Assembly (NCBI GenBank): GCA_965277715.1
Contig: OZ255836.1
Coordinates: forward strand, 2,688,001-2,752,000
Length of the DNA: 64,000 nucleotides
Origin: Gammaproteobacteria bacterium
GTDB taxonomy: Bacteria; Pseudomonadota; Gammaproteobacteria; JBCCGL01
Direction of reading: 5' to 3'
The position numbers and the translations under genes are program-made. Within the stretch, counting starts at the first letter, position 1, and every line of letters begins with the position of its first letter. Of the stretch, positions 13,948-37,581 are shown one piece after another. Below the pieces are notes generated by a model, which did not search any database, was not told the DNA's origin, and saw nothing but the letters and a program-made list of their open reading frames with translations.

Positions 13948-14430
13948 GTGTTTGTAGCCACTAGCGAAAATCCCATCTTTGCCTACGATGTGCGTTGGTG
14001 TCATCCACATGCACAAGAGGGGCAACAAAATCCATTATATGCAGTTGCTGACGGCAAAGTATTTCGTGCGGGTTATCAAAACCCTAATGACGCTGATAGC
14101 GGGCTAGGTTTCAGGTTATCGACTAGTGATGAAGATGGGTATTATCAGTATGGTCATTTAGATCCGGATAGTCTTACTGTTAGTGTGGGAGACACGATAA
14201 AGAAAGGAAACCTTATCGGTAGTTACGCTGATCCTACAAATGGGGGTTCAAGCGGTCCTCATGTGCATTTAGAAAGGAGGTTGTGGTCTAATCCTCGAGT
14301 GACTGTAAATCCAGGTAATATATCACCTCTTAGACCTACTGGAGTAATATCTGCCCACTGGAATAGAACTGATAGAGTGCATAAAACACCGCATCAAGGG
14401 ATAGATTGGGCTTACCCAAGGAGTGATTAA
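13948..14430 (+). CDS. M23-family peptidase domain with circularly permuted motif order, probable orphan toxin tip
   Basis: YAVADGKV, YGHL..V.VGD.IKKG.LIG, SSGPHVH, then C-terminal ISAHW..HQGIDW; the true start is uncertain. Confidence 0.75.
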   Translation: MFVATSENPIFAYDVRWCHPHAQEGQQNPLYAVADGKVFRAGYQNPNDADSGLGFRLSTSDEDGYYQYGHLDPDSLTVSVGDTIKKGNLIGSYADPTNGGSSGPHVHLERRLWSNPRVTVNPGNISPLRPTGVISAHWNRTDRVHKTPHQGIDWAYPRSD

Positions 14431-14963
14431 TGTCTAAGTATATATGTTTTTTAATTTGTGTTTTGATTACTGGAGCCTGTAATGCTAGTAATTTGATTTC
14501 TTGTGGTTCTTCTTCACTAGATGTTACAGTTGAAAAGCACTATGAGGGGCAAAGCGTTTTTATCAGGATATTTGATAGCGAAGGGAAAAAATTGCTGTTT
14601 CCTATTTTGATAAATAAAGGAAAATTTCTTTCTTTGTGTGAACAAAGTAAATTCTTATTAATTAATGATACTGCTCATTACAAGCCTGGAGCGTCTTTTT
14701 TAATGAGATACGATGGTCAGGTATTGGCGAGTTTTGAATTTGGACTAATAGCTAGTATTGAGAAGTCCGAAGATGATAAATTATTTTGGGTTCAGAACTT
14801 TGACATTTTAGAAGATAGAAGACCAGTAACTATTTTAAATGTCTATAATGAACATGGAGATAGTGTTGTCAACCAGACGTTTAAGAATCGACAAATCTAT
14901 TCGTTAAATGTAAATGATGTTGAATACCATATCTCAATAAAGGCACCTGAATATCCAGGGTAA
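14430..14963 (+). CDS. Hypothetical lipoprotein, candidate immunity protein
   Basis: Lipobox-like LITGAC; TAATG overlap with the M23 gene; AT-rich. Confidence 0.6.
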   Translation: MSKYICFLICVLITGACNASNLISCGSSSLDVTVEKHYEGQSVFIRIFDSEGKKLLFPILINKGKFLSLCEQSKFLLINDTAHYKPGASFLMRYDGQVLASFEFGLIASIEKSEDDKLFWVQNFDILEDRRPVTILNVYNEHGDSVVNQTFKNRQIYSLNVNDVEYHISIKAPEYPG

Positions 14964-15103
14964 TTATCTAGCCACCATCCGATTAAGCTGTGCCTTTTTG
15001 ATAAGGCTATCAATCACTTGGTAAACGATCAATTAAGAGCGTTCTATATTTTACGTTCGATTTTCTTCAGACTGTTTTTAAGTTAAATTTTTTGGAGGAT
15101 TTC

Positions 15104-15890
15104 ATGAACAAACGCAGTCGAGACAGCCAGCCCAACGGGCTCGGGCAACTGGCGCAGGTCAGCGACAGCCAGGGCTATATTGAGCGCTATGAGTACGACC
15201 GACTCGGCCGCAACCAGTTAACCCGCACCACCTTGCCCGGACACGGGGAATACACCCAACGGCAAACCTTCGATGCTTACGGTCGGCTATTTCAACAGTT
15301 CGACGCCAGCAGTGGCCAGCGCAACAACGGGGTGCGGGGGCTGCAGTATCGTTACAATGCTTTAGGTTTTCAGCAGTGTATTGAATCGGTGCGTCGCAGT
15401 GGCGACCGCCCGCAGTTGATTTATTACGAAGTCGAGCAAGTGGATGTCCGTGGCAACATCACCCGCAGTCGTCAAGGCAATGGCATTGTCACCGCCAAAA
15501 CCTACAACGCCGCCACGGGTCGGCTTGAGCAAGTCAATGGCACGCGGCTTGATCAAAGCCAAGTACAAGCACTCACCTATGAATGGGACCGCCTTGGTAA
15601 CTTAACTCGCCGCCAAGAGGGCAGTGGCAATAGTGATTTGACGGAGGTGTTTAGATATGACCGAATGAATCGGCTGGTTAATGTATGGTTGATGTATGGA
15701 TTCCACAGAGTTACAAATCATACCCTACGCTACGATAAAATTGGCAATATCACCTACAAATCCGATGTGGGCAACTATCAATACGGCGCCAATGGCGCAG
15801 ACCCCCATGCGGTGACCAGTGCAGGCGGTGCCAGCTATGCCTACAATGCCAATGGCAACCAAATCCGTGGTGATAACCGCACCCTGCAAT
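15104..15890 (+). pseudogene. Rhs/YD-repeat protein fragment truncated by IS3
   Basis: YEYDRLGR, FDAYGR, YEWDRLGN, YDRMNRL, YDKIGNITYKSDVG, PHAV, YNANGN repeats; the frame runs into the IS end at 15891. Confidence 0.85.
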
Positions 15891-15955
15891 TGATGTGGCT
15901 ACACTAATTCGGACCCCTCACTTGAAGTAAACTGAGTTTACGCGAGGAACCGAAA

Positions 15956-16243
15956 ATGAAAGAGAAGCAATCCTATACGGCTGATTTTAGAGAGTCAGCG
16001 GTTAAATTAGTCCTGAAAAACGACCAGCCTATAGCCGCGACCGCACGCGAACTGGGCGTGAACGAGAATACTTTGCATACCTGGATCAGCAAGTATAGCC
16101 AACCGAAAGCGGATGGCAGTGGCCACAGCGATGAGCACTTATATGATGAACTCAAACAGTTGAAAAAAGAAAACGCGCGTTTGAAAGAGGAACGCGACCT
16201 GTTAAAAAAGGCGGCCGCGTACTTTGCCAAGGAACAAGCGTGA
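15956..16243 (+). CDS. IS3 transposase OrfA
   Basis: YTADFRESAV..ARELGV...TL..W HTH; coiled coil ending ERDLLKKAAAYFAKE. Confidence 0.9.
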   Translation: MKEKQSYTADFRESAVKLVLKNDQPIAATARELGVNENTLHTWISKYSQPKADGSGHSDEHLYDELKQLKKENARLKEERDLLKKAAAYFAKEQA

Positions 16244-17102
16244 AGTACGCCTGGATACAGCAACATCAATCCGGCTATGGTGTTCGACCTCTTTGTCGCT
16301 TTATGGCGGTTTCCATTAGCGGCTATTATGCGTGGTCAAAACAATGCACCACAGCACGCTATCAGGAAGATCAACAGCTGACAGAACGTCTGCACGTCTT
16401 TTTTGAGCAAGGACGAGGGACTTATGGTGCCCGGCGTTTAAAGCATTTGTTTGCCAATGAAGGGTTCGTATCAGTCGCCGCCGAATAGGCCGTCTCATGG
16501 TACAAGCAGGGCTTTGTTGCCGTACCAAACGTAAGTTCAAAGTGACAACAGACTCCAAACACCATAACCCCATTGCGCCCAATCATCTGAATCGAGCCTT
16601 CACCGTTGAACAACCTGACCGCTGTTATGTTGGTGACATTACCTCCATCTGGACGCAACAGGGCTGGCTTTACCTGGCCGTCGTGATTGACCTGTTCTCT
16701 CGTCAAATAGTGGGTTGGTCTATCCAATCACACATGAGAACCAGTCTGGTGGATGACACATTGCTGATGGCGATTTGGCGGCGTAAGTCCAAAGCTGGCC
16801 TGCTATGGCACACAGATCGTGGCTGCCAGTATGCCTCTAATCACCATCGCCGCTTACTAAAACAACACCATATTATTCAAAGTATGAGCTGCAAAGGCAA
16901 TTGCTGGGATAACAGCGTGGCTGAAAGTTTTTTCCACACCTTGAAAACCGAATTAATTTACCCACAAACCGGGTCAACCCGAGAGGAGGTCAGACAAGCT
17001 ATTTTTGAATATATTGAAGTCTTTTACAATCGCCAGCGATTACATTCCGCTAATGGCTATTTGTCACCCGTGGATTATGAACTGTCTAAAAAGATCGCTT
17101 AA
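16240..17102 (+). pseudogene. IS3 transposase OrfB (DDE), frameshifted near 16470
   Basis: Split into 16240-16488 and 16497-17102; the ISRRRIGRLM segment sits in the second frame; GDIT, HTDRG.QY, GNCWDN.VAESFF motifs. Confidence 0.85.
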
Positions 17103-17155
17103 ACATGTGTCCGATAATGTGTTGACACATCAGAGTGGCTGTGAAAGAACGTGTA

Positions 17156-17914
17156 ATGACTGGTGCAATATCGACTTATTTGCCCGAAAAGTGCTATGGA
17201 TTTATCAAAGGGGATGATGGTAAAGACTACTTTTTCCATGAGCAAGATTTTGATGATAAACAGCAGATAAGTGGTTTGTGTGAAGCGGCTTTCGTCGAAT
17301 TTGACCAGCAGGCTACACCAAAGGGATATAAGGCCCGGCGCTGTCGACTTATCGATGCTGCAAAAGTTATGACCTATGTCACGCCGGATGGCGTTCTCAC
17401 TTCGCGTTCAAATAGTATTCGCGGTTGGGATATGGTGGAGTGTGGAGGTTGGATTGTGCATGGCACTTCATCAGGTTCACCCGATGCGGCAAGAAAGGAG
17501 GTAATAAAGCATGCGATATTATTAGAAGCCAATGCGGTAGTTGAGCTTGAATACTACAAGACAACAGGATCGGAGCAAGGCACGGGAAGAGGTACACACT
17601 ATTATACAATTCACAATTTTCGTGGGCGTCCAGCCGTTGTCGCTAAACGAAATGCGAGAGGGCAATATCGAAAAGAAGATCTATTGGGCGTAAACGAACG
17701 AGCGCAGAAGATGAAAGATAAATTTGAGGAAGAGGCTAACAGGAGTGCAAATTGGAGTCTTATCGTATCCGTCGTGCTTGCCGCTATTATCTATTTTGCG
17801 TGGGATGAATCCACACAGGCAGTGGTCATTTGTGTAATTATCGGCTGCATTTCCATAGCTCTTCTAGACTCGTCAGACGATGGTAAATGGTTGGAAAAGG
17901 TGGGTGAATCCTAA
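17156..17914 (+). CDS. Cold-shock-domain protein with a YbjQ-like middle domain and two C-terminal TM helices
   Basis: KCYGFIKGDDGKDYFFH (RNP motifs); ANAVV..Y..G pattern; hydrophobic C-terminus; ORF is open from 17135. Confidence 0.7.
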   Translation: MTGAISTYLPEKCYGFIKGDDGKDYFFHEQDFDDKQQISGLCEAAFVEFDQQATPKGYKARRCRLIDAAKVMTYVTPDGVLTSRSNSIRGWDMVECGGWIVHGTSSGSPDAARKEVIKHAILLEANAVVELEYYKTTGSEQGTGRGTHYYTIHNFRGRPAVVAKRNARGQYRKEDLLGVNERAQKMKDKFEEEANRSANWSLIVSVVLAAIIYFAWDESTQAVVICVIIGCISIALLDSSDDGKWLEKVGES

Positions 17915-18027
17915 GATATTTTTCGCCTATTTTGCTCTGTTACATGCCACAAGAAAACGTCTTCTTTTTCACCTATTGAAAAGACACTTAAAGCGCCTAT
18001 ACTACTAAGTATAGGTGACGGAATAAG

Positions 18028-18408
18028 ATGATGAATACGACAATAACTTCTGCGAAAGAGAACTCAGAACCTAGCGCATTGCGTAGCTGGGTGCTGTTCT
18101 TCTTAACGTTACTGGCTGCCTTCATAGCCTGGAATGTGGCAGAGGCGCTTGGTGCCGACACCCTGTTTCAAGTCGTAATTGCGGTATTTGTCCTTGCCAT
18201 CAACCGCGATATCCGTGAAGGGTTTATTGAAGGTATTATGACGAATCTTAATCGTGAGGCAGCGCCCACGTCTTGCGAAGATCGAGAGATCATCGATGAC
18301 AATGGCGGCGACTATAGTATTGGCCATGAAAAGGGTTGGGGATATGATTCGGATGGCAATTACACTTATGGATGGAAGTTGCATCCAGGGAGCCACAGGC
18401 TTCGTTAG
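18028..18408 (+). CDS. Small two-TM protein with acidic/aromatic tail, candidate ICE entry-exclusion protein (variant A)
   Basis: Convergent with a traG 3' end; paralog at 20081; TTGAAA-N16-TATACT promoter at 17976-18003. Confidence 0.55.
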   Translation: MMNTTITSAKENSEPSALRSWVLFFLTLLAAFIAWNVAEALGADTLFQVVIAVFVLAINRDIREGFIEGIMTNLNREAAPTSCEDREIIDDNGGDYSIGHEKGWGYDSDGNYTYGWKLHPGSHRLR

Positions 18409-18734
18409 ATTCCAGAACGATTCACCCCGCCAGCGAGGGCTGGTGGGGTGAGTGCTCCCTGGCCTCTGCCTGCGCCTGTTGCTGATTTAGCTACATCTTT
18501 TACATCCCCACCAAACGCTGCATTATCCAAGCTGCTGCCCGCCTTCCAGCCCGCCATGGTCAGGACGGGCGAGCAGAGCAGCGCCATTGGTTAAGCCTTT
18601 CACAGCCGTTTTGGCACCCCATTTGGCTATACCCCCCCACCACATCACCGCCCGTTTTTAGTAGGCCCTTGGGGGTGTACTTGAAATTCCACGCTTTGCT
18701 TGCCAGGTTACGTGTCGTTGCACGCCAGCTCACT
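18405..18734 (-). pseudogene. TraG_N-type conjugal transfer protein remnant with internal deletion
   Basis: LTMAGWKAGSSLDNAAFGGDV is shared with 20511-21146; deletion at a GCGAG microhomology. Confidence 0.7.
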
Positions 18735-18803
18735 ATACAAATATGTTAAAGAGGCTGATCAAGACATGGCGTGAAATACACTCTCCAACTAATCAGGCTT
18801 ACC

Positions 18804-19787
18804 TCAAGTCGGCGCTGCCTCTGGTGGTTGCGCTGAAAGAAAAGATAGCAACTCCGGTATATCATCATCATGCGCCATAATATAGTTCCCCCCTGACGGC
18901 ACACTACCCCCCTCTATCGGCCCTGCCAGATGAGGCAAGTAATCATCAAAACGGACAATATGGTGATAAAAATCAACCTCCTCGACAATAGCATATGTTT
19001 GATAATCCATCGACTGCATCAGCTCAATAACCTTACGGTTATTATCAATCACATATTGGTAGCTTGGATCGTTTTCTGCGGGAATATTGGCAATTTCACA
19101 ATGAATACAGGGGCGGTATTGCTGGAGTGTGCGCGCTAAACCCTTGAGAATATCCAGTTCTGCTCCCTCTGCATCAATTTTAATAATAGACAGTGCATCT
19201 ATCGATAACTGCTGTAACAGTGAATCTGCCGAAAATGTCGGCACTATGTTGTTAAAATTACTATCCCCCTGGTTAATTGTTGGGTGAATAGACGAGCAGG
19301 GATCAGCATAACGTGAAGCATAAAAAGTCCGCAATCCATTGGTATCAGCCAGCGCAACCGGGAGAACATGGCAATGTGTACCCCAGCTATTGGCACCAAT
19401 TAATTCATTAATAAATGCAAACGACGCATAGTTTGGCTCAAAGCCGTAATACTCACCATCGTGTATATCTAAACTATTACACACTGCCTGATACCTAATT
19501 AAAAATTCACCTGCATGTGTACCAATATCAAACGCAACTCCCGGTTTTACCTGTAACGCGGCATGAATGCACTTCGACATAAAAAATTCATTGGGAACGA
19601 TCAAATACTTTCCCATCCAACTGGTTAAGGGCATCGTTAATTCAAGCCCTAAGTGTTCCACTTGTCTTTTTCTGAATCGAAGCTTGTAGAGAAAACTATG
19701 CCATTCCCTTAAAAACTTCTTCCGCCCCCACCAACGTGCCGGGTAGGAATACATTGCATCATATTGTTTGAGATTTTTATTATTCAT
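18804..19787 (-). CDS. FkbM-family SAM-dependent methyltransferase
   Basis: FDIGTHAG, GFEPN, PVALAD, IIKIDAEGAEL.IL.G. Confidence 0.85.
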   Translation of the reverse strand: MNNKNLKQYDAMYSYPARWWGRKKFLREWHSFLYKLRFRKRQVEHLGLELTMPLTSWMGKYLIVPNEFFMSKCIHAALQVKPGVAFDIGTHAGEFLIRYQAVCNSLDIHDGEYYGFEPNYASFAFINELIGANSWGTHCHVLPVALADTNGLRTFYASRYADPCSSIHPTINQGDSNFNNIVPTFSADSLLQQLSIDALSIIKIDAEGAELDILKGLARTLQQYRPCIHCEIANIPAENDPSYQYVIDNNRKVIELMQSMDYQTYAIVEEVDFYHHIVRFDDYLPHLAGPIEGGSVPSGGNYIMAHDDDIPELLSFLSAQPPEAAPT

Positions 19788-19988
19788 ATCTCGTTGATCT
19801 GGGGGATTTAAGCGCGGAGAGAGTAAACGTTCTCATTCTGGAAAGCAATGCCAACGGTAAATAGCCATCGGGAACTACCGTAGTGAGTGGCTATTTTGGA
19901 CAGACCAACTACGCCGCCGTCAAAGTGGTGATTCATGGTTTATAATGGTAAGACCCACGCGCAAAAAAATATTTTTTCTCATTTCCCC

Positions 19989-21132
19989 CTGTTACATGCC
20001 ACAAGAAAACCCCCTCTTTTTCAACTATTGAAAAGACAATGAAAGCGCCTATACTATTAAACGTAAATGACGGAATAACGATGATGAATACGACAATAAC
20101 TTCTACCAAAGAGAACTCAGAACCTAGCGCATTGCGTAGCTGGGTGCTGTTCTTCTTAACGTTACTGGCTGCCTGCATAGCCTGGAATGTGGCAGGGGCA
20201 CTTGGCGCCGACACCCTGCTTCAAGTCGTAATTGCGGTATTTTTCTTTGCCATCAACCGCGATATCCGTGAAGGGTTTATTGAAGGTAGTATGACGAACC
20301 TTAATCGTGAGGCAGCGCCCACGCCTTGCGAAGATCGAGAGATCATTGATGATGACGACGATAAAGGTGGGATGGGCTGGGGTTTGGACTATTCCGGCGA
20401 TTATACCTATGGGCCTAGAGCACGTGACGGAAGGGTAAAAGCATAGAGTTGATGAAAAAGCTGGTCAGGCAAATGTGCTCTGATCAGTTTTTGTCTTTAT
20501 TATTGTCAGATTATTTGGTTAAACCCCTCCCCACATTTGCTAGTTTATCCACATCCCCACCAAACGCTGCATTATCTAAGCTACTGCCCGCTTTCCAGCC
20601 AGCCATAGTTAGGACGAGCGAGAGTACAATGGGTAAGACCAGGTAAAGTAGCCCTACCAAAATTAAAAATACCGTATTTTCAATTGGGTTTCTCACCGCA
20701 TCCCAAACGGAAAGCCGGGCGCCAACGGATGGGTACATAGTAGACCATAGATTGTGCTCCAGGTAATTCGCAGCGGTGAATAGCGATGTCCAGAACTTCA
20801 CCGAAATGAAGAATACAGTGAGCGCAAACACAGCGCTCCACTGTGCTCCGGCCAGCACCCAGGCCCAGGGTAATACCATAATCATCGCCATTAAAATCAT
20901 CGCCTGTACCATTGGAGCGAGGATCTTGATGATTTCGATCTTGGCAAGGAACCCTGTTGTCTCGCTGGCGAGCAGAGCGGCGCCATTGGTTAAGCCTTTT
21001 ACCGTTGTTTTGACACCCCATTTGGCTACACCCAACGCCGCATCACCGCCCGTTTTTAACAGACCCTTTGGGGTGTACTTGAAATTCCATGCTTTGCCTG
21101 CCAGGTCACGTGTCGTTGCACGCCAGCTCACT
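19989..21132. repeat. Cassette copy B: promoter, small membrane gene and convergent traG remnant
   Basis: Homologous to 17937-18734; homology ends at CGCCAGCTCACT in both copies. Confidence 0.9.
20081..20446 (+). CDS. Small two-TM protein, candidate ICE entry-exclusion protein (variant B)
   Basis: First ~90 aa nearly identical to 18028-18408 with a divergent C-tail; same promoter at 20028-20055. Confidence 0.55.
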   Translation: MMNTTITSTKENSEPSALRSWVLFFLTLLAACIAWNVAGALGADTLLQVVIAVFFFAINRDIREGFIEGSMTNLNREAAPTPCEDREIIDDDDDKGGMGWGLDYSGDYTYGPRARDGRVKA

Positions 21133-21146
21133 GAGGCCTTTATCAC
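20511..21146 (-). pseudogene. C-terminal fragment of a TraG_N-type conjugal transfer protein (integrative conjugative element type)
   Basis: PMVQA..M...LP...F..FW..A..LE..L and LYLVLP..AGW pattern of ICE TraG_N proteins; the N-terminal part is missing. Confidence 0.75.
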
Positions 21147-31607: not shown

Positions 31608-32906
31608 TTAAACAGAGTCGGCATCGACTTCGTAGGCAACAGTGCCAGGGGGGTGTTGATACCAGCCGGGGTCGGTGTAGTCACCGGGTTTTTGGTCTGG
31701 ACGTATTTTCAAAACGGTGAACATGCCACCCATCTCGATGGGGCCGAATTGCCCCTCGCCGGTCATCATGGGCAGGGTGTTTTGTGGCAGGGGCATAACC
31801 ATCTCGCCCATATCCGCCATGCCGCGCTCACCCATTATCATATAGCCGGGCAGGAGTTCACTAAGGCTGCGGTGTACCGGGCGTTGGTCGACGCCAATCA
31901 TATTTGGTACATCATGGCCCATGGCGTTCATGGTGTGGTGTGATTTGTGGCAGTGCATAGCCCAGTCGCCCTCAGCGTCAGCCTCTGCGGTAAATTCAAT
32001 GGCGCGCATTTGGCCTATGGCGATATCGGTGGTGACTTCCGGCCAGCGTGCAGCGGGGTTGACCCAGCCACCATCGGTGCCGGTGACTTCAAATTTGAGA
32101 CCGTGGATGTGGATCGGGTGGTTGGTCATGGTGAGATTGCCCATACGCACGCGCACGCGCTCACCTGTGCGACACACCAAGTGATCAATACCGGGAAACA
32201 CACGGCTGTTCCAGGTCCAGATATTGAAGTCCACCATGGTGTTGATTCGTGGAGTCATGGTGCCGGGGTCGATGTCGTAGGCGCTCATTAAAAAACAGTA
32301 GTCCCGGTCGACGGCGTGCTGTTGTGGGTTTTTGGGGTGGACGACGAAAAAACCCATCATGCCCATAGCCATTTGTACCATCTCATCGGCGTGGGGGTGG
32401 TACATAAAGGTGCCCGAATGGCGCGTGACGAATTCGTAGGCGAAGGTTTTACCAGGTGGAATTTGCGGTTGGCTGAGACCGCCCACACCGTCCATACCGC
32501 TGGGGAGTAACATGCCGTGCCAGTGAATGGTGGTGTGTTCGGGCAATCGGTTGGTGACGTAGATGCGCACTTTATCCCCTTCTACGCACTCAATCGTCGG
32601 GCCGGGTGCCTGGCCATTGTAACCCCACAGGCGCACGTCCATACCGGGAGAGAATTCACGTTCGATGGCTTCGGCAGTGAGGTGAAATTCTTTCCAGCCA
32701 TTGCGCATACGGTAGGGGAGTGACCAGCCGTTGAGCGTGACGACTGGGCGATACCAGGGGCCACTGCCCGGCTCATCCGGTGGTTGCATGGTTGCGTTGC
32801 TGACACTGGGTGATTCGGGTAGGGCGCCGAGCGCCGAGCGATTGACGAAACCGGCGCCCAGTGCGAGCGCGCCAGCGTGGCTTAAAAATTGTCTGCGTGT
32901 TGTCAT
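31608..32906 (-). CDS. Tat-exported multicopper oxidase (copper-resistance type)
   Basis: TRRQFL Tat motif; HWHG, YHPH, HPIHIHG, HCHKSHH copper ligands. Confidence 0.92.
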   Translation of the reverse strand: MTTRRQFLSHAGALALGAGFVNRSALGALPESPSVSNATMQPPDEPGSGPWYRPVVTLNGWSLPYRMRNGWKEFHLTAEAIEREFSPGMDVRLWGYNGQAPGPTIECVEGDKVRIYVTNRLPEHTTIHWHGMLLPSGMDGVGGLSQPQIPPGKTFAYEFVTRHSGTFMYHPHADEMVQMAMGMMGFFVVHPKNPQQHAVDRDYCFLMSAYDIDPGTMTPRINTMVDFNIWTWNSRVFPGIDHLVCRTGERVRVRMGNLTMTNHPIHIHGLKFEVTGTDGGWVNPAARWPEVTTDIAIGQMRAIEFTAEADAEGDWAMHCHKSHHTMNAMGHDVPNMIGVDQRPVHRSLSELLPGYMIMGERGMADMGEMVMPLPQNTLPMMTGEGQFGPIEMGGMFTVLKIRPDQKPGDYTDPGWYQHPPGTVAYEVDADSV

Positions 32907-32934
32907 AATAATATTCCGGTTAGATGCAAGCCCT

Positions 32935-34344
32935 TTAGTGGGCTTCGCCGCCTACGCTGCTGGGCCGGGCGGTGTCACTGTCAAAATTCATGGTCATGGT
33001 GTTGTCATTGCCGATCAGCGCCTGTTTAAGCGCGGTGTCTGCCAGCCAGAAATCGCGTGTGGCGTCGACGTAACCGGCGGCGATGCCAGTGGCTTCACGG
33101 GCATCGTCGAGCAGGTCAAAAACACTGATTAGCATGCCGTTGTAGCGCAGTAGTTGCTCCTGGCTGATGCGCTGGCGCAATGGCAGTAGCTGGCGCTGAT
33201 AGAAACGCGCAATTTCCCAGGCGCTTTGGTAACCTGCCATGGCTTCACGGGCGCGTGAAACAGCGTTGATGGTGGTTGCCTCTGCCTGGGCCTGTGCCTG
33301 TTCAAAGAGTATTTTTGCCTTGTCATTTTTTACGCCCCCGGCGTCAAAAATGGGCAGCTTCCACTCGATTTCAAAGCCGCGCTCGGTCTCATCGTCGACA
33401 CGTTCTACCACCGGCCCGGCTTCGAGTACGCTGATAAAGGCGTTGCTACGTGTCAGGTCGAGGTTGCTGGCCATGGCCTCAAGGTTCATCTTGGCCATTT
33501 GCACATCAAGGCGTTGCAGTACTGCCTGTCGTTCGATGCTGTCGATTGCCAACGGTGTTTCCGGCAGGGTGGGAAGGCGCGATGGCAGGGACAATTGCTG
33601 TGCCTGTTCACCCCATAATCCAAGCTGGCGGATCAAGGATTCTCTGGCTGCGCCCTCGCGCAGTTGCTGCTTCGATAGGCTGGCTTTTAACTCGCCGAGA
33701 AACGCCTCTGAGCGCGCCGCATCCAGTACGCTGCTGTGGCCGATGGCACTCATCTGCCGGGTCAGGCTGTTGGCGGTTTGTGCCGCTTCGACCGCTCGCC
33801 GCACCAGCTCGGTGTGCTGGCGTTGGCTGACTGCCTGAATCCAGGCATTGCGGGTGTCCGCCAGGTAGTCGAGCACGGCGCCGGCGGCTACATAGCGCGC
33901 CTGTTCGAGGCGGCGTGCCGCCACCTGGCGGCGCAGTGGAATGAGAAACAGGCCATTGAGATCAAACAGCAGTGTCGAGTCGAATTCCCCGCCGGGAAAC
34001 TGCTCGTAGCTCAGGGTGGGGTTGGGTAGCCGCCCGGCTTGCGCGTAGTCGGCTTCGGCGACGCCAACACTCCACAGATTGGCCCTTAGCATAGGGTTTT
34101 TCTGTAGGGCGATTTTTTCAGCATCGAGCAAATCGAGTGGTTTGGCGAGTAAGTTGTCAACGACCTGTTGGCTGAGTGTTGATACCAGCCCCGGTTTTGG
34201 CAGCGCCTGTGCCAAATGGGTCTTGTTTTCCAGCAATGGTTCCAGTTGGCCGATGCCGTAGTCTTTCGGCACGCTGGTGCAGGCGGTCAGCACAGACAGT
34301 ATCAGCAATACACAAAAGCGCCTGGGGAGTATGCGCAACATCAT
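32935..34344 (-). CDS. TolC-family outer-membrane lipoprotein, copper-associated
   Basis: Lipobox LTAC, QAGRLPNP, LPIFD, RYNGMLISVFDLL, RDFWLA. Confidence 0.87.
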   Translation of the reverse strand: MMLRILPRRFCVLLILSVLTACTSVPKDYGIGQLEPLLENKTHLAQALPKPGLVSTLSQQVVDNLLAKPLDLLDAEKIALQKNPMLRANLWSVGVAEADYAQAGRLPNPTLSYEQFPGGEFDSTLLFDLNGLFLIPLRRQVAARRLEQARYVAAGAVLDYLADTRNAWIQAVSQRQHTELVRRAVEAAQTANSLTRQMSAIGHSSVLDAARSEAFLGELKASLSKQQLREGAARESLIRQLGLWGEQAQQLSLPSRLPTLPETPLAIDSIERQAVLQRLDVQMAKMNLEAMASNLDLTRSNAFISVLEAGPVVERVDDETERGFEIEWKLPIFDAGGVKNDKAKILFEQAQAQAEATTINAVSRAREAMAGYQSAWEIARFYQRQLLPLRQRISQEQLLRYNGMLISVFDLLDDAREATGIAAGYVDATRDFWLADTALKQALIGNDNTMTMNFDSDTARPSSVGGEAH

Positions 34345-35099
34345 GGCTTTTCCTCCGCGTTTGCCGTGGGAGTGGCGATATTGGTGATGACAAATCCACC
34401 CGCACTGTTGTCGATGTCAAAGTCGATTTCAGTACCTTGTTGTACGCCTTCCAGCAGAGCGGGGTCACTGACCTGAAACATCATGGTCATTGCGGGCATA
34501 CCGTATTTCTCGACTGGGCCATGTTGAATTTTGATCTTGCCCTGCTCGGCGCGTATCAACTTGACGATGCCTCTGGCGTCACTTTGTCGGCTTGCTGTCG
34601 TTAAGTGGGTGACAACAAACCCGCCACTGTCATTGTCGATGTTAAAACCAATCTCATCACCCACGGTCAGCCCCTGTAATAAGGCGGGGTCACGGGCGGT
34701 AAATAACATCGTCATCGCGGGCATGCCGTACTTTTCGACTGGGCCGTGCTGGATTTTAATTTTCCCCTGATCGACGCGTAGGTTTTTAATGACACCACGC
34801 GCATCACTACCGTTACCACTGGGTTTGGTGGGCACCTCGATCATTAGCAGTGGTTCAGGAGTGGGCAGTGAGTGTGCGCTGTTAAAGCGTTCATCACCGT
34901 TAAAGCGGGTTTTCCAGGGGAGTCGTGTATCGAGTGGTATAACCGGTTCGGTAAAAACGGTTTGGTATACCGTGCTACTGGTATGTGAGTCGGCGTGCAA
35001 TACCGGGGGGGCATGTTGGCCAATGGCTATGCTGACCGGTATGCTCGATGCTGCCAGCAGAATACTGCCGCAGATTAATTTTTTGGGTGTCGTGATCAC
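34341..35099 (-). CDS. Periplasmic copper-binding protein with two tandem CusF domains
   Basis: Two copies of GKIKIQHGPVEKYGMPAMTM.F; start placed at GTG 35099 after a GAGG SD. Confidence 0.85.
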   Translation of the reverse strand: MITTPKKLICGSILLAASSIPVSIAIGQHAPPVLHADSHTSSTVYQTVFTEPVIPLDTRLPWKTRFNGDERFNSAHSLPTPEPLLMIEVPTKPSGNGSDARGVIKNLRVDQGKIKIQHGPVEKYGMPAMTMLFTARDPALLQGLTVGDEIGFNIDNDSGGFVVTHLTTASRQSDARGIVKLIRAEQGKIKIQHGPVEKYGMPAMTMMFQVSDPALLEGVQQGTEIDFDIDNSAGGFVITNIATPTANAEEKP

Positions 35100-35215
35100 C
35101 TTGATATCCTCTTGAATCGATTGGGTGCCAGCGGTCAACCAAACCATTGACGGCTTGGCATGGGCCAGCAATCGGTAAACGCTACACAGGGCTGTGCGCC
35201 GAGCAGCGTGGGATA

Positions 35216-35569
35216 TCAGCTTTGAGGGGGGCGTTCGAGCCTTGAGATAAACCGTGTGGGCCTGCCAGGTAGGTAAACCGCCAACGGATTTATGCCAGAG
35301 GTGGGGGTTGATAGCGGTTCGGGCGGTGAGATAAACACCGTTGAGCCGACACAGTGATCCAGGCACATATTGCATTCGTCGCAGTCGAGATGCATAGAAG
35401 CGGGGAAGGCGTCATCAAACTCCACGCAGTGGGCGTTTGTGGGGGTGTCACTGGCAGGCAGTAAGGTAGGTGTTGCCAACAAGGGCGCGGCGAATAGCAG
35501 CACAGCGAGCAGGGTGCACAGGTCTTTGTGCCCTCTGGTTGCTGAAAAAAGGTGCTGTAAACCCATCAC
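35216..35569 (-). CDS. Small Cys/His-rich exported protein (CopL/DUF2946-like)
   Basis: Signal-like segment, HC..HLDCDECNMCLDHC, C-terminal RPP; first gene of the copper cluster. Confidence 0.6.
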   Translation of the reverse strand: MMGLQHLFSATRGHKDLCTLLAVLLFAAPLLATPTLLPASDTPTNAHCVEFDDAFPASMHLDCDECNMCLDHCVGSTVFISPPEPLSTPTSGINPLAVYLPGRPTRFISRLERPPQS

Positions 35570-35618
35570 TTTTGAAAAGCCATTGTTTATTTAATCATCA
35601 GAATGATACAGCTGTGTT

Positions 35619-35927
35619 GTGATGCGTCAAGTGCGGAAGCCGTTACGTTACGGCAAGGCCGCTGCACCGGTTGTTGTCAACAATAGATCGGCTTTTGACT
35701 GTGGTGACGAGGCGTTAAACCTTTTTTTGCAGCGCCACGCCAGACAAAGCCATGAAAAAGGCAGTGCTAAAAGTTACCTCGTTATCGACGACGAGGATAA
35801 CAAAACCGTTTTAGGCTATTACAGTGTCAGCTCAGCCTCTATTACTTATGAACGTACACCGGCAGTAGTCAAGCGCAGTCTGGCCCGGTATGAAATACCG
35901 GTATTCCTTTGGATGATGCGCCGCTGA
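35619..35927 (+). pseudogene. Truncated GNAT acetyltransferase (toxin-antitoxin toxin type)
   Basis: FDCGDEALN.FL..HARQ..K.Y..VLGYY..S..RYEIPVF, ending before the acetyl-CoA-binding RLAV..QG.G motif. Confidence 0.75.
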
Positions 35928-36052
35928 CTTTGCTACTGCCCTTCAGTACTATCCATGCCGTGTTGGCATCGACCAGCAAGCTATGATAAGCCTCTCTGCC
36001 TCTATAAAGCTATCCGGGTCGGAGTGCGCGAACAAATAAAGGGTACTGACCC

Positions 36053-37581
36053 CAATACCGCTACCTCAGCCTGGTGAAGAACTAAAATAACGTTAAAAGT
36101 CATATAGATGGGTAACGTTAGGTTTCCTTTTGAAGTATCCTTGTAAGCGACAAAACACACAAGTACTTCGCCAAAAAACCTAACGCTGACCTATTCTATG
36201 AAATTCGCTATCCGACAGCAAATTAAAACGATCAAATGTGTTTTTTTTCAGTTAAACACAGGAGACTTTAATAATTTACTCTGTTCCAAGCGTCTAAACG
36301 ACCTAAGCGAACTATCGGGCAGCTATCGAGACCGGGTATTCACCCCACTTGTTACACTGCGTTTATTTCTCTGGCAGGTGTTAAGTGATAATGGCAGTTG
36401 TAAAGAAACAGTCGCCCGTCTGCTAGTTGATCGTTTACAGGAAAACCTGCTTCCAAGTTCTTTTAATAGCGGTCCTTACTGTAAAGCCCGTCAACGTTTA
36501 TCTCTGTCGTGGGTACTTCAGGAGGTACGTTCAATCGGTTCAACGTTACATGCCAGAGCAGGTAAAATTTGGACATGGAAAGGGTATAATGTGGTGCTTG
36601 TGGATGGAACCACTGTTCTCATGCCTGATACCCAGAAAAATCAACATAAATACCCCCAGCAACAGACTCAAAAACCGGGTTTAGGTTTTCCTATTGCTCG
36701 AATAGTCGGACTCATTTCTTTAAGTTCTGGCGCTATTATTGATTATGCAATGGGAGAGTATCAAGGAAAGGGAACAGGGGAAATGTCATTATTCAGTACC
36801 CTGATGACGTCATTAACCGCCAATGATCTGTTACTGGCAGACCGCTATTACTGTACTTATGCTGTCTTAGCGGCTCTACAATCGAAAGGGGTTGCATTCG
36901 TCTCAATGAATCACGCACAAAAGAAAGCGGATTACAAAACAGGGTTAACGCTTGGTGCAAAAGATCATCTTATCGAGTGGGAAAAACCTAAAAGAAAACC
37001 GGTTTGGATGTCGCAATCAGACTTTGATCTATTGCCGAAAACCCTGACAGTTCGAGAATTTTCAGTGGATGGGACAGTCTATGTTAGCACTTTGTTGGAG
37101 GTTGATACTTACCCTAAGAAAGAGCTTTCAACACTGTATAAGGAACGTTGGAAAGTTGAATTGGATTTTCGTACAATTAAAACAGATTTGAAAATGGATA
37201 TGTTGCGATGCCATTCACCCGAGATGGTTGAAAAAGAAATAGCAACAACCTTTATGGCTTATAACCTGATTCGGGGTAGCATGGCAGAGTCAGCAAAAAC
37301 AGAGGGTGAAATAGCACGTCAAATAAGTTTTAAGGCAACGGTACAGCTACTGGGTATTGCTCATATTAAATTCATCCATTCAACATCCAGTATGATACAA
37401 AAAGCGTACACTTCCTTATTAAGGATAATCGCTTCAACGTTAATTGGCAGGAGAAAACGATCACCCCAACCAAGGGCAATTAAACGACGACCAAAAGCCT
37501 ACCCACTGTTAACTGAACCTCGTATCAAGGCCTCTCAGAGACTAAAAGATTCATTGGGTTAAACCTGAGGTAGCGGTATTG
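36053..37581 (+). mobile_element. IS4-family insertion sequence, 1529 bp, with 11-bp target duplication
   Basis: Perfect 17-bp inverted repeats CAATACCGCTACCTCAG / CTGAGGTAGCGGTATTG; GGTACTGACCC at 36042-36052 and 37582-37592. Confidence 0.95.
36198..37562 (+). CDS. IS4-family transposase
   Basis: YCKARQRL, VDGTT, ADRYY, LYKERWKVELDFRTIK (YREK signature). Confidence 0.95.
   Translation: MKFAIRQQIKTIKCVFFQLNTGDFNNLLCSKRLNDLSELSGSYRDRVFTPLVTLRLFLWQVLSDNGSCKETVARLLVDRLQENLLPSSFNSGPYCKARQRLSLSWVLQEVRSIGSTLHARAGKIWTWKGYNVVLVDGTTVLMPDTQKNQHKYPQQQTQKPGLGFPIARIVGLISLSSGAIIDYAMGEYQGKGTGEMSLFSTLMTSLTANDLLLADRYYCTYAVLAALQSKGVAFVSMNHAQKKADYKTGLTLGAKDHLIEWEKPKRKPVWMSQSDFDLLPKTLTVREFSVDGTVYVSTLLEVDTYPKKELSTLYKERWKVELDFRTIKTDLKMDMLRCHSPEMVEKEIATTFMAYNLIRGSMAESAKTEGEIARQISFKATVQLLGIAHIKFIHSTSSMIQKAYTSLLRIIASTLIGRRKRSPQPRAIKRRPKAYPLLTEPRIKASQRLKDSLG

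Follow-up and report, generated by a model that had tools for sequence, protein, structure and literature searches.

Two direct repeats in the genome of a sponge-associated bacterium (Gammaproteobacteria bacterium, GCA_965277715.1), here called unit 1 (about 17917-18733) and unit 2 (about 19969-21146), are very probably remnants of the traG end of an integrative conjugative element (ICE). Both lie in a stretch of 64,000 nucleotides (nt) of contig OZ255836.1 (positions 2,688,001-2,752,000, forward strand), which was analysed as a whole and is referred to as the window; positions given below are counted from its first letter. Each unit consists of a promoter-like site, an intact small gene whose product has two hydrophobic segments, and the 3' piece of a TraG_N gene that converges with the small gene. 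Between the units lies a 1.2-kb segment with a gene for an FkbM-family methyltransferase. Judged by their sequence, the traG pieces belong with the short TraG_N/VirB6-analogue of ICEs of the ICEclc/PFGI-1 type (mating-pair formation class G, MPF-G). In this ICE family, a small membrane-protein gene that converges on the traG stop is a constant feature, and the pattern found at the junction of the two genes in the window is a general trait of it.

The best overall explanation, to which we assign a probability of about 0.42, is that the units are remnants of MPF-G ICE ends with exclusion-like small genes. The two units would be what an ICEclc/PFGI-1-type element of an otherwise unsampled lineage left of one of its ends, each made up of the last third of the TraG_N gene and the small membrane-protein gene lying tail-to-tail with it. 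The element would have been cut once inside traG, the remnant later duplicated around the FkbM methyltransferase gene, and the junction of about 185 nt then exchanged in one of the copies, probably through recombination with a different allele. The traG pieces are dead; the small genes keep their promoter-like site, their intact frame and a hairpin after the stop. By analogy with described exclusion systems, the small proteins would be located in the inner membrane as entry-exclusion factors, the variable C-terminal region of each would recognise TraG when a related ICE comes in and keep its DNA from entering, and the two alleles would cover two specificity groups. That the small genes still act in exclusion is proposed tentatively, as somewhat less than an even chance. 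Doubtful, in our estimate, is the wider proposal that MPF-G (ICEclc/PFGI-1/ICEHin1056-type) ICEs possess an undescribed entry exclusion in which two C-terminal tails, that of the short TraG_N and that of the tail-to-tail small membrane protein (DUF3742 and unrelated analogues), are swapped together as one hypervariable module defining exclusion groups, the alleles of the window being kept as chromosomal immunity against two ICE groups.

Structure of the two repeat units

The initial annotation had described two homologous units in this region, each with a promoter-like site, an intact small gene and a convergent broken traG end, and this arrangement was recovered at the same place (Table 1). 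The flanks of the gene junction, which had been called nearly identical, are less alike than that, the identity between the units being a mosaic of 82-95% along their length. A block of about 185 nt (18300-18486 in unit 1, 20353-20535 in unit 2) is unalignable as DNA; it takes in 30-35 codons at the end of the small gene, the spacer, and 12-31 codons at the end of the traG frame. As the divergent parts of the two units form this one contiguous block, the units cannot by themselves show co-variation of the two protein tails. The promoter-like site reads TTGAAA, 16 nt, TATACT in both units (17976-18003 and 20028-20055), with 10 of 12 positions matched in each, and its hexamers and spacing are kept in both copies within a stretch of 82% identity; across the region such sites are not in excess (7, compared with 6.0 +/- 3.1 in shuffles).

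Table 1. Coordinates of the features of the two units, of the segments aligned between them and of the gene that separates them
Feature	Positions	Strand	Remarks
Unit 1 upstream region with promoter-like site	17917..18027	+	-35 at 17976-17981, -10 at 17998-18003
Small gene 1	18028..18408	+	126 aa; two hydrophobic segments, then acidic, Gly-/aromatic-rich tail; intact open reading frame, hydropathy
Unit 1 hairpin	18420..18453		15 bp, GC-rich, directly 3' of small gene 1; -39 kcal/mol, z -5.2; 0/200 shuffles fold as well
Unit 1 traG 3' pseudogene	18405..18733	-	two frames (18560-18733, 18405-18587)
FkbM-family methyltransferase gene	18804..19787	-	between the units, outside the repeat; Methyltransf_21 E 5.7e-15; TIGR01444 E 7.9e-21
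Unit 2 upstream region with promoter-like site	19969..20080	+	-35 at 20028-20033, -10 at 20050-20055
Small gene 2	20081..20446	+	121 aa; first 91 residues 91% identical to small gene 1, tail different
Unit 2 hairpin	20456..20492		with A-run and U-run, between the convergent genes; terminator-like, both strands
Unit 2 traG 3' fragment	20511..21146	-	frame open over 211 codons
Upstream region, unit 1 vs unit 2	17920-18026 vs 19972-20078		82% identity
Small gene, first 273 nt, unit 1 vs unit 2	18027-18299 vs 20080-20352		95% identity
traG segment, unit 1 vs unit 2	18487-18573 vs 20536-20622		84% identity
traG segment, unit 1 vs unit 2	18568-18634 vs 20967-21033		90% identity
traG segment, unit 1 vs unit 2	18633-18734 vs 21031-21132		89% identity

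The minus-strand pieces are 3' ends of traG, as had been annotated, by a profile match as well as by alignment to the C-terminal third of their relatives. The frame of unit 2, whose homology with unit 1 begins at the GTG at 21131, matches positions 311-458 of the 462 in the Pfam TraG_N profile (PF07916) at E 1.2e-6; with just the last third of the gene present, its score of 28.2 bits falls short of the 36.1 set as cut-off for whole proteins. The N-terminal two thirds of TraG_N are absent in both copies. The copy in unit 1 is further broken by a 350-nt deletion relative to unit 2 (unit 2 positions 20623-20972, flanked by GCGAG) and by a 1-nt shift near 18633. Both pieces end at the identical traG base (...CCAGCTCAC), which therefore indicates one truncation followed by duplication. 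Read from their sequence, the pieces are gene fragments or pseudogenes and no working TraG_N members. In the tail that the initial annotation quoted for the TraG of unit 1, the last residues (about 17) read through the hairpin at 18420-18453; this hairpin lies within the traG frame, and these residues are therefore probably not natural. The convergent stops overlap by 4 nt in unit 1 and are 64 nt apart in unit 2 (range among relatives, -45 to +62 nt).

Regarding the small genes, the start ATG of small gene 2 is at 20081 and not at 20078. Both frames are open, and two membrane segments are predicted for each product, in agreement with the earlier description; by hydropathy the hydrophobic segments comprise about residues 16-40 and 40-63 in both proteins, and the tails are rich in Asp/Glu, Gly and aromatic residues. 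That the tails differ between the units holds for their sequence in general, but a GWGxDxxGxYTYG motif is common to both. A low-confidence AlphaFold2 model of small protein 1 (mean pLDDT 59.9) contains a helix at residues 16-77 and a low-confidence hairpin at residues 101-117, and draws the motif as a beta hairpin. Folding of the hairpin of unit 2 gave -20.6 kcal/mol (z -4.7) on the plus strand and -11.7 kcal/mol (z -2.6) on the minus strand. A complex prediction for the traG piece of unit 2 with small protein 2 scored 0.00 in both runs, which were made without control pairs.

A profile search against the DUF3742 family, which the initial annotation had suggested as a check, does not place the small proteins there: the DUF3742 model (PF12553) has no match in them at E ≤ 0.1, and the best phmmer match of small gene 2 among the open reading frames (ORFs) of related loci, a DUF3742 ORF, is not significant (E 0.74). 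A tblastn search with the small protein against plasmids and a blastn search with the region against Escherichia coli genomes gave no match.

The traG end in related elements

With the traG piece as query, a HMMER scan of 1.84 billion representative proteins had 169 hits that reached E ≤ 1e-3; of the 150 listed, most are 500-620 aa long and are matched over their C-terminal third. Among the matches listed, the closest full-length TraG shows 35% identity, and nothing is nearer but the two pieces of the window itself and a protein of 130 aa (53%, from a 2075-base contig). No longer protein scored in a word search with the traG piece, and two profile scans of genome contigs, one of them built from a 2-row alignment, found nothing. 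Plasmid relatives are represented by four records at 30-38% identity, three of which are annotated as TraG N-terminal domain proteins. In the two plasmid relatives examined, the gene is the last of an operon with TIGR03756/TIGR03757 or TraU-family genes, whereas this setting at the end of a type IV secretion system (T4SS) operon is absent in the window. The TraG_N protein Orf53587 of ICEclc is described in the accessible part of PMC10018362 as an essential VirB6-analogue. An origin from SXT/R391, as suggested initially, does not agree with these relatives, which are of the short 500-620-aa TraG_N type with TIGR03756/TIGR03757 neighbours and not the long TraG of SXT/R391. It was confirmed that the units persist without their ICE: the 46 larger ORFs of the window that were scanned include no other conjugation gene, and the 64 kb contain no tRNA gene. 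The C-terminal tails of this TraG family are generally Gly-rich and variable.

Forty-three TraG_N loci (41 from metagenomes, 2 from plasmids) were examined for a convergent gene at the traG stop, 40 of which were assessable and three of which had too little downstream DNA. A convergent ORF of at least 50 aa, ending between -60 and +80 nt from the traG stop, was present in 40 of the 40 assessable loci and in 23 of 23 clusters of TraG C-termini (90% identity), compared with 18% of the time in shuffles. An annotated ICE of E. coli has the same gene order, with a small convergent gene at the traG stop, and Table 3 of PMC8895235, the part of that paper on which we rely, lists a DUF3742 gene in forward and traG in reverse orientation beside the integrase. 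Thus the predicted linkage of a small convergent gene to traG in intact ICEs holds by position. Many of the convergent ORFs of the relatives encode two hydrophobic segments and an acidic, aromatic tail; two of the 14 scanned match DUF3742, just one of them above the cut-off. Over 23 loci, the tails of the small proteins are net negative in 20 and those of TraG net positive in 23, a descriptive count without a composition control; the last 30 residues of the window's own tails are near neutral (+1 and -1).

The divergence reported where the two genes of the window meet recurs in intact ICEs, in which the junction is hypervariable too. Six near-identical gut-type ICE loci from metagenomes, with TraG proteins 92-98% identical, are 23-91% identical over the last 35 TraG residues and 29-75% identical in their small proteins. 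Their DNA identity is 91-96% along traG, falls to 27-51% from about 130-170 nt before the traG stop, stays low through the 3' half of the small gene and is 60-67% in its 5' part. When E. coli genomes were compared with one such locus, 10 of the 12 matches listed broke off 122-123 nt ahead of the traG stop, and a coverage of 80% of the query was reached in none of the 17 records. These sharp edges of identity argue for replacement by recombination and not for slow drift. In pairwise comparisons of nine loci, the small protein was less conserved than TraG in 36 of 36 pairs. The initial annotation had further expected the two tails to co-vary across ICEs; the correlation found is weak (Spearman 0.31, p 0.07, nine loci, 36 non-independent pairs), and as physical linkage would produce the same correlation, it was dropped as a test. 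In the gut-type ICEs of the metagenome loci L011, L013, L016, L017, L019 and L026 and of the E. coli locus L044, traG is near-identical up to about 40 codons before the stop; from there on, unrelated alleles take the place of both the TraG tail and the convergent small gene.

Interpretation, alternatives and surroundings

In F, SXT/R391 and IncA/C, the known exclusion factors are small proteins of the inner membrane whose genes lie beside the VirB6-like gene that they target. Exclusion genes abut VirB6-homologue genes as a rule, according to the accessible text of PMC11493245, and for this reason the small gene of MPF-G ICEs is a candidate exclusion gene. By the same analogy, a hypervariable tail fits a role in recognition.

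The stretch was found in three sequencing runs of one organism and in sponge metagenomes of three other studies. In strain X4, the differences listed for the traG piece of unit 2 comprise a stop (codon 81), a deletion of 15 nt and, apart from that stop, 8 non-synonymous versus 6 synonymous changes, whereas those listed for small gene 2 are 1 non-synonymous and 3 synonymous changes; over the small genes, the contigs of X4 and X7 show substitutions only among the differences listed. The contig of X7 connects 21030 to 18633, from which it follows that unit 1 of that strain is without the 350-nt deletion. Further junction alleles are present in X5 and X7, and other tail alleles in sponge-metagenome strains appear as joints or loose ends at 18258, 18399 and 20311. 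Contigs of X3 and X5 agree with unit 2 over its promoter region (19990-20056) but run on upstream into different sequence, leaving a loose end at 19990; this suggests that the unit exists in a third copy, or that other DNA replaces the FkbM segment in a strain.

Several features suggest that the small genes are kept while traG decays, namely the changes in X4, the promoter hexamers, the hairpins after both stops, and a ratio of non-synonymous to synonymous substitution rates (dN/dS) of 0.39 over the first 91 codons of the two small genes (8 non-synonymous and 6 synonymous differences, dS 0.10), which is based on 14 differences and is a weak signal of selection. Besides this small number, a series of points weighs against a role of the small genes in exclusion. 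The contrast between small gene 2 and traG in X4 is not significant (Fisher p 0.30), and the comparison covers contigs from four runs with 40 of the 99 differences listed. The charges flanking the hydrophobic segments leave the topology of the small proteins unfixed. Searches with these proteins returned nothing from four profile libraries (including Pfam, NCBIfam and PADLOC), only the two proteins of the window from a word search over 5.8 billion proteins, a best score of 0.81 and no lead from the ESM Atlas, nothing significant by phmmer against 5971 six-frame segments of the fetched loci, and a probability of 1.4% by hhalign against a profile of nine DUF3742-like proteins. With the closest full-length TraG only 35% identical, no cognate ICE is known for the small genes to exclude. 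None of the sequencing runs listed as containing the stretch is an RNA run. No exclusion role of DUF3742 or of any MPF-G ICE was found in the open literature searched (subscription journals and supplements were outside this search), and part of the tail divergence could reflect relaxed constraint.

Some of the same evidence would be expected if both units were decaying ICE leftovers, with small ORFs that are functionless and have remained intact through shortness and recent loss. The traG pieces are clearly pseudogenes, the surrounding island holds other debris (an IS3-cut Rhs fragment and a 44-nt gene scrap), the selection contrast is not significant, the small proteins are without relatives in the searches, and no RNA run contains the stretch; yet both small frames are intact despite a synonymous divergence of about 0.10 between the copies, the promoter hexamers and their spacing are kept inside a stretch of 82% identity, the tails keep a common motif, and the listed differences in X4 and X7 are substitutions only in the small genes, whereas traG has a stop and indels. 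On balance we regard inert debris as rather unlikely. It is improbable that the small proteins have another role, be it as a donor membrane partner or regulator of TraG or as a small membrane toxin-like or maintenance factor, and were retained for a reason other than conjugation. A donor assembly factor should be conserved, but the small protein diverges faster than TraG in every pair of loci compared, which is typical of recognition or immunity determinants, and a partner of TraG is useless once traG is dead. Strict adjacency to traG would nevertheless fit any functional pairing, and the tail composition of the relatives, negative in most small proteins and positive in TraG, could suit binding within one cell. 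The accessible text of the ICEclc study (PMC10018362) assigns no function beyond orf53587, and the word 'exclusion' is absent from it.

Highly improbable, finally, is a use of the units as silent spare cassettes that recombine with an ICE resident elsewhere in the genome and so switch the specificity of its traG end. Such exchange would be allowed by the conserved sequence at either side of each unit, from traG and from the small gene; the identity along the units is a mosaic, and a further copy of the promoter region is hinted at by the loose end at 19990 in X3 and X5. However, the protein library scanned includes the proteins of this genome, and with 35% identity for the best full-length TraG it shows no resident partner ICE.

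ICEs of the ICEclc/PFGI-1 type belong to the most common conjugative elements of Proteobacteria and often lie in tandem at hot spots. For such ICEs, the window and the 40 related loci provide a concrete exclusion candidate, the tail-to-tail small gene together with the TraG tail, at a junction that is replaced wholesale between otherwise near-identical elements, and the question can be tested in tractable hosts. If the reading of the small genes as exclusion genes is true, orphan copies remaining after loss of the ICE would show in simple form how a host turns a gene of a mobile element into a barrier against conjugation; should the small genes be silent, the units are a decayed remnant of an ICE and nothing out of the ordinary.

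The low-GC island that ends with the units extends over 12.3-21.15 kb (GC 0.45, versus 0.52 in the window), and the FkbM segment within it has a GC content of 0.43. The island contains, on the plus strand at 13948-14963, an ORF with an M23 peptidase domain (160 aa) directly followed by a 177-aa ORF without a family, which could form an effector/immunity-like pair. An Rhs-repeat ORF (15092-15907) stops where an element of the insertion sequence (IS) family IS3 starts (orfA 15956-16243, integrase-core ORF 16497-17102), and looks like a gene cut by the insertion. The gene at 17135-17914 (plus strand) encodes a predicted membrane protein of 259 aa that begins with a cold-shock domain and is hydrophobic at its C-terminus. 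The N-terminal part resembles effectors of the retron Se72 family (NCBIfam E 5.5e-12, at 45 bits below the cut-off of 82) and also matches PADLOC CSD_V (E 1.4e-13); to judge from these matches, the protein may be an effector of the defence type, although no retron partner is visible. A 44-nt piece at 19895-19938 is also found inside a different, deeper contig in four of four runs, with the same loose ends on both sides, and looks like a leftover of a gene whose intact copy lies elsewhere in the genome. To the right of the island follow a ketopantoate-reductase-like gene and an amino-acid ABC transporter, and farther on a copper-handling cluster at 31608-37562 (multicopper oxidase, outer-membrane efflux protein and CusF-domain protein), which a DDE transposase gene (36198-37562) adjoins.

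Comparison with known systems

In SXT/R391, eex is convergent with traG. As in the window, the gene of a small inner-membrane protein adjoins a VirB6-like traG in the TraG-Eex pair of SXT/R391 and the TraG-EexC pair of IncA/IncC, to go by the available parts of PMC5122569, PMC5812530 and PMC11493245. Both systems have a specificity that lies in the C-terminal residues of the small protein and distinct exclusion groups, as far as those parts describe them. The tails of the window vary between units and strains, as do those of related ICEs. For SXT, the sections of PMC5122569 that were accessible place the specificity in C-terminal residues of Eex, and the determinant of TraG in an internal P-G-E triplet and not in the tail. 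The TraG of SXT/R391 is of the long MPF-F kind with this internal determinant, whereas that of the window is of the short TraG_N type (about 550 aa) with a variable C-terminal tail; and the ICE of the window is gone.

Orphan cdiA-CT/cdiI and rhs-CT/rhsI modules are tandem cassettes in which a stub of a conserved upstream gene with a variable tip is joined to a small cognate gene. The window resembles them in having tandem cassettes with a gene stub, a variable tip and a small gene. They differ in being toxin/immunity pairs of the same orientation, whereas the genes of the window converge and have neither a toxin domain nor a main locus nearby.

On the F plasmid, traS has the same orientation as traG. 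The setting of the small proteins is nevertheless comparable to that of TraS, a small inner-membrane protein encoded beside traG that targets the TraG of the donor (PMC11493245, accessible text). The F system belongs to a different T4SS class (MPF-F) and has no homology with the window.

A similar arrangement is that of the DUF3742 (PF12553) genes of ICEclc/PFGI-1-type ICEs, which, like the small genes, are convergent with TraG_N and end at its stop, and whose products share with the small proteins two hydrophobic segments followed by an acidic, aromatic, Gly-rich tail. The small proteins of the window are without the basic N-terminal region of about 40 residues found in DUF3742 proteins, in addition to having no match to the profile.

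With respect to persistence outside a conjugative element, the sfx gene differs from the small genes in encoding a surface-exclusion lipoprotein that targets TraN and in residing on a mobilisable element, whereas the window holds a chromosomal remnant; carried by a putative integrative and mobilisable element (IME), it is, in the part of PMC11493245 that describes it, a precedent for a working exclusion gene on a non-conjugative element.

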